NCBI GenBank assembly: GCA_018335335.1
Contig: JAGXKG010000001.1
Coordinates: forward strand, 169,801-233,800
Length of the DNA stretch: 64,000 nucleotides
Direction: 5' to 3'
Source of the DNA: Candidatus Thorarchaeota archaeon
Lineage (GTDB): Archaea > Asgardarchaeota > Thorarchaeia > Thorarchaeales > Thorarchaeaceae
The notes under the pieces were generated by a model that saw only the letters and a list, made by a program, of their open reading frames with translations, was not told where the DNA came from and ran no database searches. This document shows, piece by piece, positions 21,602 to 54,402 of the stretch. The number at the start of each line of letters is the position of its first letter. Position 1 is the first letter of the stretch. The position numbers and the translations under genes are program-made.

Positions 21602-22438
21602 TTGATAATGAAAAATACAATTGATGGAAAGACAGTGGTTCTAACGGGGGATAAGAATTGCTATCTCGTAATCGCAGACCTTCACCTTGGTTGGCACATT
21701 AAATTGTCCGAGTCGACAGGAGCAGAGTTCCCGCCCCAAGATGAGGTAATGCTAAGAGAGATACACACTTTGATAGAAAAATACGACGTAACGGAACTCT
21801 ATCTCATTGGTGATGTCAAGCATTCTTTCGGTGCGGACGTATCTTTCAATTGGCAGAGAATACCGAAGTTCATGGAGGCCTTGACTGAGAAGACTGAAGT
21901 CGCTGTTATAGTAGGCAATCACGATGGAGATTTAGAAGCTCTCTTGCCTAGAGATGTTGCATTACATGGAAGCAAGGGGAAGTTGATAGAGGAGGGTGAT
22001 TCATCAGTAGGATTGATCCACGGTCACGCATGGCCGTCGCCAGAGGTGCTTAGTGCCGATTTGATAATTGAGGGGCACAATCACCCAGCATTGAGTAATC
22101 TGAAAGCTGTTTCTTCAAGTGCTCTACGTAGAACGATTAGAAGACGGTCGAAATCAATACCTGTTACTCTTAGTTCAAAATTGAATAGAACGTGTGTTCA
22201 GAAGAATCTTGATTTATCTATTGACGAGAATCTGGATCAGCGGGTTCTTGTCACTCTACCAAGTTTCAACAAGCTTGTGTCAGGCATTCCAGTTGATAGC
22301 CCAGAATCCACGTTCAGAGGGCCAATCTTCGGCAACGGATGTGCCAATTTGGTAAAATCTAAAGTCTTCAGCACGCAGGGTACCTACTTGGGGACTGTGC
22401 GCTTCTTGCGAAACCGTTTGGTCGAAATGATTAAATGA
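21602..22438 (+). CDS. Calcineurin-like metallophosphoesterase
   Basis: Ordered metallophosphatase motifs: ADLHLG (D-x-H), GDVKH, GNHD, HGHAWP (GH) and GHNHP (GHxH). Divergent from the SWIM gene with a 46-bp spacer. Confidence 0.7.
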   Translation: MIMKNTIDGKTVVLTGDKNCYLVIADLHLGWHIKLSESTGAEFPPQDEVMLREIHTLIEKYDVTELYLIGDVKHSFGADVSFNWQRIPKFMEALTEKTEVAVIVGNHDGDLEALLPRDVALHGSKGKLIEEGDSSVGLIHGHAWPSPEVLSADLIIEGHNHPALSNLKAVSSSALRRTIRRRSKSIPVTLSSKLNRTCVQKNLDLSIDENLDQRVLVTLPSFNKLVSGIPVDSPESTFRGPIFGNGCANLVKSKVFSTQGTYLGTVRFLRNRLVEMIK

Positions 22439-22468: not shown

Positions 22469-22576
22469 GGGTCGGTGGTCTAGCTACTCTACCACATTTT
22501 TGTACTAGAGCTAGAATGGCGAGATTCTCGGTTCGGGTCCGAGGGATCGTGAGTTCAAATCTCACCCGGCCCACCA
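22469..22576 (+). tRNA. tRNA-Pro(CGG) with a ~32-nt intron in the D-loop region (non-canonical position); CCA encoded
   Basis: Read directly. Acceptor GGGTCGG / CCGGCCC (one G-U). D-stem GTCT/AGAT separated by 40 nt instead of about 8. Anticodon arm CTCGG-TTCGGGT-CCGAG (anticodon CGG, U33, G37). Variable GGATC. T-arm GTGAG-TTCAAAT-CTCAC. Discriminator A, then CCA. Exon-flanking TCTAGCT (22479-85) pairs with AGCTAGA (22509-15), enclosing the intron. Confidence 0.7.
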
Positions 22577-22606
22577 GCTTTTTCTTGTGACGCAGATGAT
22601 AGTAGG

Positions 22607-31105: not shown

Positions 31106-31603
31106 TCATGCAGCTATTTTTACCATACCTTGAAGACCCTTGACTAACAATTTGTAACCGTGTAATCTCTGCTTAGGATCAATTGCTACCATCCCATAAG
31201 TAGGAACATCAAGCAAATCCTGCACAGATTCTGGACGCATGGCATCTGGAAGATCCTGTTTGTTTGCAATTGCTATGACCTGTTTGTCGCCGAGTAAATT
31301 GCTGTATTTGTGCAGCAGCTGCCTAGTTTTCAGTACTGCTTTGGGGTTACTCTCCGTGACGACGACAACCATTTCACTACCTTGCATAAAATCCGGCCAC
31401 ATGAATTCGAAATGCTTCTGACCGCCCATTTCTACTAGGGTTACTTTTGTAGTACTATCAAGAGTTATTGTGCCACAGTCCATGCCCGCTGTTGGTTTGT
31501 AGTTAGAGTCCAATTTCTGGGAATTATTATCGGTAAGAAGCCGAATGAGAGTTGATTTACCCGCATACCCGGGCCCCATGAGGGCGACTTTAACGTACTT
31601 CAT
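31106..31603 (-). CDS. Small GTPase, Arf/Arl-like flavour
   Basis: P-loop GPGYAGKST, switch-I Thr region KPTAGMDCGTI, G3 as EMGGQ followed by a Trp 7 residues later (the Arf-family DVGGQ...W pattern), and G4 NKQD. Size 165 aa. Confidence 0.55.
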   Translation of the reverse strand: MKYVKVALMGPGYAGKSTLIRLLTDNNSQKLDSNYKPTAGMDCGTITLDSTTKVTLVEMGGQKHFEFMWPDFMQGSEMVVVVTESNPKAVLKTRQLLHKYSNLLGDKQVIAIANKQDLPDAMRPESVQDLLDVPTYGMVAIDPKQRLHGYKLLVKGLQGMVKIAA

Positions 31604-36384: not shown

Positions 36385-36715
36385 GGGATTGCAGTGGGTA
36401 GGGCAGGTCGTTAGCCGCGATCATGACCACAAGGCTATAGTGGTGCCAGTAACCCATGTATGAGGATGAACCCCGTTTCAGCTGACGTTCGTCGTGTGAC
36501 GTTGATGAGCAGTCTTCGGAGTCTGCAACGGACATATCATTGATCGTAGGATCGATGGGATTGTCTTAGACCCCCGAAACGGGTCAGGCCCTGGCGGGAA
36601 CAGCCCTAAGGGGGAGCGGTGGAGCCCCGGAGGTAGCTGCTTTGAGGAACGCGGCGAAAGGGTCATCTGCGACGGGACATCCGAAAGGTGGGAGCCACTG
36701 CACCTACTACAGTAT
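36385..36715 (+). ncRNA. ffs: Probable signal recognition particle RNA (7S RNA)
   Basis: A GC-rich ~330-nt non-coding stretch. It contains GGGTCAGGCCCTGGCGGGAACAGCCCTAAGG, closely resembling the conserved SRP RNA helix-8 motif GUCAGGUCCGGAAGGAAGCAGCC. 5' GCAGTGG.. is complementary to 3' ..CCACTGC. Ends are approximate. Confidence 0.45.
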
Positions 36716-49910: not shown

Positions 49911-50017
49911 TGGCGGGCTCGGCGGGAGTTTCACATCTCTTGGAAACCAAGAGAGGCTTTGAACCCGCGACCCCTAGGTTAAAAGCCTATTGCGCTACCT
50001 GTCTGCGCCACGAGCCC
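49911..50017 (-). tRNA. tRNA-Lys(UUU) with a ~30-nt intron inside the T-loop (position 58-60); CCA encoded
   Basis: Read on the minus strand. Acceptor GGGCTCG / CGAGCCC. D-arm GCGC-AGACAGGTA-GCGC. Anticodon arm ATAGG-CTTTTAA-CCTAG (anticodon UUU; 27-43 is A.G). Variable GGGTC. T-stem GCGGG...CCCGC separated by 37 nt (TTCAAA-[GCCTCTCTTGGTTTCCAAGAGATGTGAAAC]-T). The insert contains an 8-bp hairpin TCTCTTGG/CCAAGAGA. Discriminator G, then CCA. Confidence 0.6.
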
Positions 50018-50338: not shown

Positions 50339-50479
50339 GCCCCGGTAGTGTAGTCTGGCCATATCTATAGAAACGGTCTATAGGTATCAGAATAGCATCC
50401 GAGACTGTCACTATCACGATGTATAGCCATCGTGTCGGCCAATCTCGGGACTCGGGTTCAACTCCCGACCGGGGCGCCA
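50339..50479 (+). tRNA. tRNA-Asp(GUC) with two introns (one near the D-loop/D-stem junction, one canonical at 37/38); CCA encoded
   Basis: Acceptor GCCCCGG / CCGGGGC. D-arm GTGT-AGTCTGGCCAT..[~32 nt, about 50363-50394, with hairpin CTATAG-AAACGGT-CTATAG]..GCAT. Anticodon arm CGAGA-CTGTCA|[31 nt, 50411-50441, hairpin CACGATG/CATCGTG]|A-TCTCG (anticodon GTC). Variable GGAC. T-arm TCGGG-TTCAACT-CCCGA. Discriminator G, then CCA. Total 138 nt, about 75 nt mature. Confidence 0.55.
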
Positions 50480-51015: not shown

Positions 51016-52023
51016 GTGAAAAATATGACAGAATTCCTCGATGCGTGCTACGAAGCAATTACCAAACAGAAAGCCGCAATTGGAGATACCATCGATAACG
51101 TAGATACTTCAGCAGCTTCCATCGTATCAGGTAGTGAGATAGTTGTTCTCACGGGGTGCGGAGACTCCTTGGCCGTAGCAGAATACGGAAAATGGGCATT
51201 CCTGAGCCAAGGTATCAATGCACTTGTTGTATCGCCACCAGAAGTCGAACGATTGTCTCTTGATGATGCATCTGCATTGATTGCCGTGTCTGCTTCAGGT
51301 CGAAGCCTCACGACTATAGATGCACTTCGCAAAGCAGGTGAGATGGGCGCTTCCAGCATTCTTCTAACTGATAACCCGGAAGGGAGTGCAGCAGAACATG
51401 CTGAGACTGTCTGGGTGACGAAATCTCACGTTACATCCCATGATATCAGTCCCTCTTCACCGACTACAACTGCAATGGCATATTTGTTGACAATAGCAAA
51501 TAGCATTGAAAGCGGATATGACGAAGATTTGGCTGATGATGTTAAGGTTCTCAAATCAGATGCCGAACAGATTCTTGTATGGGCTGAAGAAGAAGGAAAG
51601 AAGATGGCACAAATCATCAATCCAGGTAGTCGATTGTATCTGATATCGGAAGGGCCCAACTACGTAGCTGCTCAAATTGGCATGTGTAAGGTAAACGAAT
51701 ATTCGCTTACGTTTGCATCCACGATTCTCACAGAGGAATTTCGACATCATTACGTCTTGGCAGTAGAAGAAGGCGATTCTGCAATCGTAGTTTCTGATTC
51801 CAACAGAAATATGGTGCCATACATGAAGGCCCTGAATGACGTGCTTGGAATTCAAGCGTACCACCTCAAGGTTGATGATGAGTTGGATCTATCTACATCG
51901 CTTTCTCAGGTTTTTCCTAACAGTATAGCTTTGCAAATGGCCGCGTACTATGCTGTTTTGCACCATCATCCAGATAAGAAGGGGTGGAAAAAGTCCAATG
52001 TTTCAGCTTTCGAGATATACTAG
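51016..52023 (+). CDS. Tandem SIS-domain sugar-phosphate isomerase/deaminase (GlmS-C / AgaS / PGI-PMI-like)
   Basis: Two SIS domains (..VVLTGCGDSLAVAEYGKW.., ..IAVSASGRSLTT.. and ..LYLISEGPNYVAAQ..). Size 335 aa. It sits 4 bp downstream of the DinB-like gene. Confidence 0.6.
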   Translation: MKNMTEFLDACYEAITKQKAAIGDTIDNVDTSAASIVSGSEIVVLTGCGDSLAVAEYGKWAFLSQGINALVVSPPEVERLSLDDASALIAVSASGRSLTTIDALRKAGEMGASSILLTDNPEGSAAEHAETVWVTKSHVTSHDISPSSPTTTAMAYLLTIANSIESGYDEDLADDVKVLKSDAEQILVWAEEEGKKMAQIINPGSRLYLISEGPNYVAAQIGMCKVNEYSLTFASTILTEEFRHHYVLAVEEGDSAIVVSDSNRNMVPYMKALNDVLGIQAYHLKVDDELDLSTSLSQVFPNSIALQMAAYYAVLHHHPDKKGWKKSNVSAFEIY

Positions 52024-54295: not shown

Positions 54296-54402
54296 CGGGA
54301 CGTAGCTCAACCTGGCAGAGCAACGGACTGTAGTATTCGGTTCCGTTGGAATCGTTTCCAGATATCCGTCGGCTGCCGGTTCAAATCCGGCCGTCCCGAC
54401 CA
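54296..54402 (+). tRNA. tRNA-Tyr(GUA) with a 30-nt canonical (37/38) intron; CCA encoded
   Basis: Acceptor CGGGACG / CGTCCCG. D-arm GCTC-AACCTGGCA-GAGC. Anticodon arm ACGGA-CTGTAG|[intron 54334-54363]|A-TCCGT (anticodon GTA). Variable CGGCT. T-arm GCCGG-TTCAAAT-CCGGC. Discriminator A, then CCA. Confidence 0.7.

Follow-up and report, generated by a model that had tools for sequence, protein, structure and literature searches.

A tRNA-Pro(CGG) gene of Thorarchaeota with a predicted 31-nucleotide intron in the D-loop

The window, a 64,000-nucleotide stretch of Candidatus Thorarchaeota DNA, holds a tRNA-Pro(CGG) gene at 22469-22576 of its forward strand, which reads GGGTCGG-TG-GTCT-[40 nt]-AGAT-T-CTCGG-TTCGGGT-CCGAG-GGATC-GTGAG-TTCAAAT-CTCAC-CCGGCCC-A-CCA. 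The acceptor stem (GGGTCGG/CCGGCCC), the T arm (GTGAG-TTCAAAT-CTCAC), the discriminator A and the encoded CCA are canonical, as is the anticodon arm (CTCGG-TTCGGGT-CCGAG), which carries the anticodon CGG at 22534-22536. G37, A73 and the G1-C72 pair are present. The D arm is interrupted, its stem halves GTCT (22478-22481) and AGAT (22522-22525) being exactly 40 nt apart. A sequence-only reading of the locus had pointed out this spacing and the complementarity of TCTAGCT (22479-22485) with AGCTAGA (22509-22515), and we confirmed both in the sequence. The predicted 5' exon (22469-22485, forward strand), placed by the Rfam alignment, comprises the acceptor 5' strand, U8 and G9, the D-stem strand GUCU and the D-loop bases A14, G15, C16 and U17. 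The predicted 3' exon (22517-22573, forward strand), placed by the covariance model and the spliced cloverleaf, starts with the D-loop bases U17a, G18, G19, C20 and G21 and the D-stem strand AGAU, and continues through the anticodon arm, variable loop, T arm and acceptor 3' strand to A73. The CCA that follows (22574-22576, forward strand) is encoded in all orthologues.

The gene escapes standard searches. On the raw window ARAGORN found only tRNA-Arg and tRNA-Tyr and did not report a tRNA-Pro gene with or without its intron option, nor was the gene reported by Rfam in gathering mode with default settings. The Rfam match surfaced only with relaxed speed filters; it covers 22469-22573 on the forward strand, spans the whole RF00005 model (1-71 of 71) and reaches 43.6 bits, where the gathering score is 29; the alignment contains a D-loop insertion of 38 nt. 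The tRNA-Pro(CGG) placement had been said to fall if a covariance model positioned the tRNA differently; the model gives the same position. When 22486-22516 was removed in silico, ARAGORN called the remaining 77 nt (including the encoded CCA) as tRNA-Pro(cgg) with a clean cloverleaf, in which the D arm reads GUCU-AGCUUGGCG-AGAU. The anticodon CGG in a loop of 7 nt above a 5-bp stem, and the cloverleaf obtained on intron removal, identify the gene as tRNA-Pro(CGG).

Putative expression signals lie on both sides. A BRE/TATA-like putative promoter, CGAAATGATTAAATGA (22423-22438, forward strand), is located approximately 31-46 nt upstream of the tRNA 5' end and shares sequence with the stop codon of the phosphoesterase gene that precedes it; the BRE/TATA-like element CGAAATGATTAAAT within it (22423-22436) is approximately 33-46 nt upstream. 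The motif CGAAA(T/C)GATTAAAT is conserved upstream of tRNA-Pro(CGG) in many Thorarchaeota loci, including L007, where no upstream ORF was called on that strand, yet the promoter-like element is kept. A TATA-like hexamer starting between -45 and -28 was present in 94 of 107 upstream regions. After the CCA there is a T-rich run, TTTTTCTT (22579-22586, forward strand), which is a putative archaeal transcription terminator; such a run occurs at most 22 nt downstream in 57 of the 107 related loci.

To locate splice sites, we scanned all pairs of cuts for a bulge-helix-bulge (BHB) motif, consisting of an outer helix, a 4-bp central helix, 3-nt bulges cut after their second base, and an inner helix. 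Cuts after 22485 and 22516 were unique in leaving a normal D-loop while providing a 4-bp central helix, two bulges of 3 nt and an inner helix of 5 bp or more. This best solution predicts a 31-nt intron, ACUCUACCACAUUUUUGUACUAGAGCUAGAA (22486-22516, forward strand), in the D-loop at Sprinzl position 17/17a, and a junction at which ...GGUCUAGCU is joined to UGGCGAGAU... The earlier proposal of a D-loop intron with a BHB-like splice motif is supported, with a BHB core in the insert and a spliced product that ARAGORN accepts, while its size of about 32 nt is corrected to 31.

All elements of the motif lie on the forward strand. The central helix pairs C12, U13, A14 and G15 (22480-22483) with CUAG inside the intron (22511-22514) by four of four Watson-Crick pairs (C12-G, U13-A, A14-U, G15-C). 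The 5' splice-site bulge, CU|A (22484-22486, predicted cut 22485/22486), consists of 3 nt between the central helix and the inner helix. The latter, h', forms 5 bp between CUCUA (22487-22491) and UAGAG (22506-22510) and is extended apically by 3 bp (22494-22496 with 22501-22503). The putative 3' splice-site bulge, AA|U (22515-22517, predicted cut 22516/22517), immediately follows the central helix with the expected spacing, and its far side is closed by a lone U.G pair. The outer helix is weak in the window and in relatives (U.G, GxG, G-C, U.G), so we filed the motif as relaxed HBh' (central helix, one well-formed bulge, h' and a less structured second splice site) and not as strict hBHBh', in which the 3' bulge is closed by an outer helix of 2 bp or more.

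The rule that each bulge is cut after its second nucleotide is established for canonical 37/38 introns. It fits 26 such introns of Thorarchaeota tRNA-Pro genes, most of which have four of four central pairs and a 7-bp outer helix, as well as the window's tRNA-Tyr(GUA) gene (54296-54402, in one delimitation 54296-54399, forward strand), whose canonical 30-nt intron at 37/38 served as an internal control. In the tRNA-Tyr intron three of four central pairs form, the outer helix measures 5 bp and the inner helix is not contiguous; for this last reason automated BHB scoring failed to rank it first, and we checked the control by hand. Three other identities for the tRNA-Pro insert were rejected: a length of 31 nt is far too short for a group I or II intron, inspection by eye found no C/D boxes that would indicate a C/D-box sRNA inside the intron, and both halves of the window gene are contiguous, which speaks against a split tRNA.

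The palindromic CTAG and AGCT repeats permit several registers, and a real intron might be cut at another one, for example at G15/C16 and after G46 (or equivalent), giving the D-loop AGAAUGGCG. The structure recognised would then be the 7-bp helix TCTAGCT/AGCTAGA, which is perfect in the window, or the 3x3 internal loop of the minimum free energy (MFE) structure, which uses a further register; ARAGORN, moreover, accepts many different deletions as tRNA-Pro. The precursor MFE of -40.6 kcal/mol belongs to this alternative register, compared with -35.1 kcal/mol for the BHB conformation and -31.5 kcal/mol for the closed D-stem cloverleaf. Thermodynamics by itself does not settle the conformation. 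However, neither the 7-bp helix nor the MFE register has two 3-nt bulges staggered over a 4-bp helix, and the MFE register uses invariant bases only. In the related intron of L053 the 7-bp helix is reduced to four central pairs and one isolated pair, and we rejected it as the functional structure. The earlier suggestion that this helix presents the splice sites therefore holds for its middle, CUAG/CUAG, but not for its full length, which would swallow the bulges. Of 20000 shuffled versions of the insert, 85 contained a BHB core whose inner helix reached 5 bp or more and 778 one that reached 3 bp or more, so the BHB signal from the single sequence alone is moderate; comparative evidence makes the case solid.

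For this comparison we used contigs encoding homologues of the flanking DUF362 protein, which are annotated as Thorarchaeota, Promethearchaeia or Hodarchaeales. Among named genomes, Thorarchaeota BLK6-1.bin.124 (JAWOEX01) and Promethearchaeia GCA_053582745.1 are the nearest. Gene order is kept (Lhr helicase, GTPase, ABC-auxiliary protein, phosphoesterase, tRNA, DUF362, mevalonate-pathway genes), with the phosphoesterase and DUF362 genes flanking the syntenic orthologues. An intron of 31-32 nt interrupts the syntenic tRNA at the very position seen in the window in L002, L003 and L004 (= L005 = L103), whose DUF362 proteins are 97%, 83% and 79% identical to that of the window. In L003 a GC-rich segment of about 500 bp (~2180-2700), absent from the window, splits the upstream phosphoesterase gene, which an insertion or an assembly chimera could explain. 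A contig scan with the exact anticodon arm and T-loop gave no match, the window's anticodon stem being lineage-specific, and the Logan contig with the window's UbiD-like protein begins downstream of the tRNA and was uninformative.

Between the intron-bearing orthologues, substitutions are concentrated in the intron, where they keep or improve the inner helix. The exons are near-invariant save for the anticodon stem, which shows compensatory changes (CUCGG/CCGAG, CGCGG/CCGCG, CCUGG/CCAGG), and none of the four diverged orthologues contains tRNA-disrupting mutations. The 17-nt string of the 5' exon, GGGTCGGTGGTCTAGCT, is invariant in more than 100 Thorarchaeota tRNA-Pro genes and was found almost only in Thorarchaeota and Promethearchaeota MAGs, which, with the annotation of the DUF362 homologues and an archaeal SRP RNA in the window, points to an Asgard host of the Thorarchaeota group. 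These data bear on the possibility of pseudogene decay or faulty assembly, the insert being junk DNA or a mis-join, as the silence of the standard finders might suggest. All stems are intact, however, with the anticodon stem compensated between species; conservation extends to the promoter-like element, the CCA and the terminator run; and independent assemblies from JGI, Logan and NCBI data all contain this structure. We consider decay or misassembly very improbable.

The syntenic gene of Thorarchaeota TEKIR_12S (L006/L093) is intron-less, with AGCTTGGTA as its D-loop. It is matched exactly by the predicted junction AGCU|UGG and by the 19-nt stretch between A14 and G31, but not by the alternative junction AG|AAUGG. 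In all 106 collected tRNA-Pro genes with an uninterrupted site 17, the G-G lies at most three bases from AGCT, nearly all of them reading AGCTTGG. The product of the BHB cuts matches this pattern, whereas AGAAUGG differs from it. Cleavage at another register thus appears unlikely, and we retain the cuts at 22485/22486 and 22516/22517.

The same site is occupied in tRNA-Pro(UGG) of L053 (BLK6-1.bin.124 MAG), in two genes of MAG SRP214966_co7_247 (L107, L128), and also in four metagenome contigs (L134-L137), three of which have a different acceptor stem. Two further candidates, L131 and L133, were rejected as chance metagenome matches that are not tRNAs. Eleven distinct introns were found at 17/17a, 29-32 nt long and belonging to about seven sequence families, between which the variable parts are mostly 24-60% identical. 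Ten of the 11 retain the bulges CU|A and NN|U together with inner-helix pairs 1-3, the random pairing probability for two intron bases being 0.39. Pair 1 occurs as CG, TA or GC, pair 2 as TA, TG, CG or GC, and pair 3 as CG or AT; L135 is without a contiguous inner helix. The 3' bulge reads AA, AG, AT, TG or AC in relatives, and the exon U is always next. In the seven sequences derived from genomes or assemblies that have an intron at this site, the central helix does not vary; in the metagenome matches it was demanded by the search pattern. The exon-side central helix and bulge bases are invariant and carry no covariation information.

Alternatively, the insert might be retained, the mature tRNA having a 40-nt D-loop with an extra hairpin, which would make it an expansion and not an intron. 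The insert does fold as a compact hairpin, and G18, G19 and all other tertiary-interaction bases are still present. However, orthologues function without the insert, and the precise geometry of an endonuclease substrate persists over about seven unrelated sequence families while loop and sequence drift freely. Inserts of like size and the same geometry also occur in the T-loop and D-loop of other tRNAs in the window, and retention, above all in a T-loop, would be incompatible with tRNA folding. We know of no retained D-loop hairpins in cytoplasmic tRNAs, and regard retention as highly unlikely. We put the probability at about 0.86 that 22469-22576 is a functional tRNA-Pro(CGG) gene with a 31-nt D-loop intron spliced out at 22486-22516, as judged from sequence and its comparison.

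From the gene, its motif, the conservation and covariation and the in-silico product we infer how cleavage and ligation could proceed, and by which enzymes. In the precursor, D-arm bases C12-G15 would pair with the 3' CUAG of the intron in place of the D-stem. The resulting 4-bp helix would be flanked by CU|A and the 5-bp intron hairpin on the 5' strand and by AA|U on the 3' strand, and the archaeal splicing endonuclease EndA would cut after the second nucleotide of each bulge. An RtcB-type ligase would join the exons and probably circularise the intron, and the D arm would then refold into its GUCU/AGAU stem. Strict hBHBh' motifs are substrates of alpha4 and alpha'2 EndA. Relaxed motifs, according to PMC5829648, are cut only by (alpha-beta)2 or epsilon2 EndA carrying an extra loop; that paper also attributes to Asgard archaea, including a Thorarchaeota genome (SMTZ1-83), an (alpha-beta)2 EndA whose L1 loop confers broad specificity.

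Four of the six tRNA genes in the window carry introns, which in three of the four (Pro, Lys and Asp) are non-canonical. The tRNA-Lys(UUU) gene (49911-50017, reverse strand) has a 30-nt T-loop intron at 59/60 (49928-49957). This intron is a strict hBHBh', in which the 5-bp T-stem serves as the outer helix, the central helix is UUCA/UGAA and the bulges are AA|G and AC|U. ARAGORN missed the gene and Rfam aligned only its 5' two-thirds (29.7 bits); the spliced product is called tRNA-Lys(ttt). The tRNA-Asp(GUC) gene (50339-50479, forward strand) has two inserts. The first (50360-50393) is a 34-nt D-loop intron at 20/21 that forms all four central pairs and an inner helix of 11 bp and lacks an outer helix. 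The second (~50411-50441) is 31 nt long and lies at or near 37/38; the strict BHB rule does not fit it, and its junction is approximate. Neither ARAGORN nor the Rfam tRNA model detected tRNA-Asp, to which only a weak tmRNA-like match (50398-50469) pointed; with both inserts removed, ARAGORN calls tRNA-Asp(gtc). The tRNA-Arg(TCG) gene has no intron, and the sixth tRNA-model match in the window is weak.

Other elements of the window include an archaeal SRP RNA (36391-36701, forward strand, RF01857, 101.9 bits) and a SNORD109A-like match (51514-51575, forward strand, 23 bits, E=3), weak and either a chance match or a possible archaeal C/D-box sRNA. A small GTPase with Arf/Ras/Roc Pfam matches lies at ~31106-31603 on the reverse strand (L001 7639-8136) and adjoins a ribosomal-protein/RNA-polymerase subunit cluster and mevalonate-pathway genes (GHMP kinase, UbiD-like, AcnX). 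We take this GTPase to be a eukaryote-signature protein typical of Asgard archaea.

Introns of this kind are already known. Non-canonical BHB tRNA introns, both hBHBh' and relaxed HBh', were reportedly described in Crenarchaeota/Thermoproteales and Nanoarchaeota by Marck & Grosjean in 2003 and by Sugahara et al. in 2008. They are well known in Thermoproteales and Nanoarchaeota (PMC4090602), and the tRNA-Pro intron resembles them in being short and, as predicted, protein-spliced outside 37/38, with a 4-bp central helix and predicted 3-nt splice-site bulges. As in those introns, the motif consists partly of exon bases and so is in competition with the mature cloverleaf, and it would need a broad (alpha-beta)2 EndA. 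A single gene may carry such an intron alongside canonical and other ones. Unlike them, it resides in an Asgard host (Thorarchaeota-type) and at 17/17a, which is outside the positions given in PMC4090602 (20/21, 22/23, 25/26, 29/30, 30/31, 45/46, 53/54, 56/57, 59/60 'etc.', and 3/4), a list that is open-ended. The canonical 37/38 intron of tRNA-Tyr is of nearly the same length (30 versus 31 nt), follows the same cleavage rule and presumably uses the same enzymes, but in canonical introns the outer helix is the anticodon stem, with 5-7 bp, whereas the D-loop intron has almost none and disrupts the D-stem. Ectopic introns with BHB-like motifs are also found in D and T arms of nucleomorph and Cyanidioschyzon merolae tRNAs (PMC4090602, PMC3728597); these differ in depending on eukaryotic TSEN-type enzymes and in often being only 3-24 nt long, and no evolutionary link is shown.

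The sequence-only reading had held non-canonical introns to be rare outside a few archaeal lineages. This does not agree with PMC11291895 and PMC5829648, which report them as frequent in Asgard archaea, and the argument from rarity is weaker than assumed for that reason. PMC11291895 finds them abundant in Atabeyarchaeia and Freyarchaeia, and PMC5829648 suspects that tRNA genes of Asgard archaea are under-called. The window agrees with these accounts of the same superphylum in its frequent non-canonical and multiple introns and in the genes that finders miss. In contrast to the genome-wide counts given there, the tRNA-Pro D-loop intron, its orthologues and its presence/absence polymorphism are not individually described in the excerpts of either paper. 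The locus adds a D-loop example with covariation and no new mechanism.

Across Thorarchaeota, 79 unique related tRNA-Pro sequences comprised 18 without an intron, 49 with one and 12 with two. Besides 17/17a, the intron classes are 37/38, ~20-22 in the D-loop and 58-60 in the T-loop, these labels being approximate. The automated positions over the 79 sequences are approximate as well: 31/32, 15/16, and 17/17a for L033, L068 and L082, are alignment artefacts, and our conclusions on position rest on explicitly parsed sequences only. One Thorarchaeota group (L007/L008/L009, L020, L058, L063, L087, L129 and others; for example L007 5853-5957) has a syntenic tRNA-Pro(CGG) gene without the 17/17a intron. 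Genes of the L007 type have an unrelated insert of ~28-31 nt further 3' in the D-loop, after UGGUA, with central helix UGGU/GCCA; the strict rule gives a mature D-loop 2 nt longer than that of intron-less genes, and the junction is approximate. L038, L090, L120, L121 and L126 have T-loop inserts of ~30 nt (58-60) in otherwise intron-less tRNA-Pro(CGG) genes, that of L126 being on the complete Thorarchaeota bin27 chromosome CP070761. We also observed tRNA-Pro 5' fragments in L128/L132 (5' part L128 5686-), L094 (~4030, reverse strand) and L106 (~4722, reverse strand), whose tRNA similarity breaks off right past the 5' half of the anticodon stem (...GATTCTTGG), with unrelated sequence from there on. 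Split-tRNA halves, very long introns or integration remnants could each account for them; L128 also holds a 17/17a intron.

The syntenic tRNA-Pro(CGG) gene occurs in three states, namely without an intron, with the 17/17a intron, or with the unrelated ~30-nt intron further 3' in the D-loop, and there are genomes in which the CGG and the UGG isoacceptor both carry an intron at 17/17a. The 17/17a intron might belong to a recently mobile set of BHB introns that insert where an exon tetranucleotide pairs with the 3' end of the intron, which at tRNA-Pro would be the palindromic CUAG of the D-arm. We regard this idea as rather doubtful at present.

For annotation, ARAGORN and default Rfam missed or truncated three of the six tRNA genes in the window (Pro, Lys and Asp) because of their non-canonical introns, which implies that the tRNA complements of Asgard MAGs are systematically under-called. 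The syntenic series of intron-less, 17/17a and ~20-22 genes across Thorarchaeota can be used to study intron gain, loss or movement. Asgard archaea are the closest prokaryotic relatives of eukaryotes, and if the mobile-intron reading were true, the Thorarchaeota lineage would be a natural system in which to catch the gain and transposition of archaeal tRNA introns in that group.
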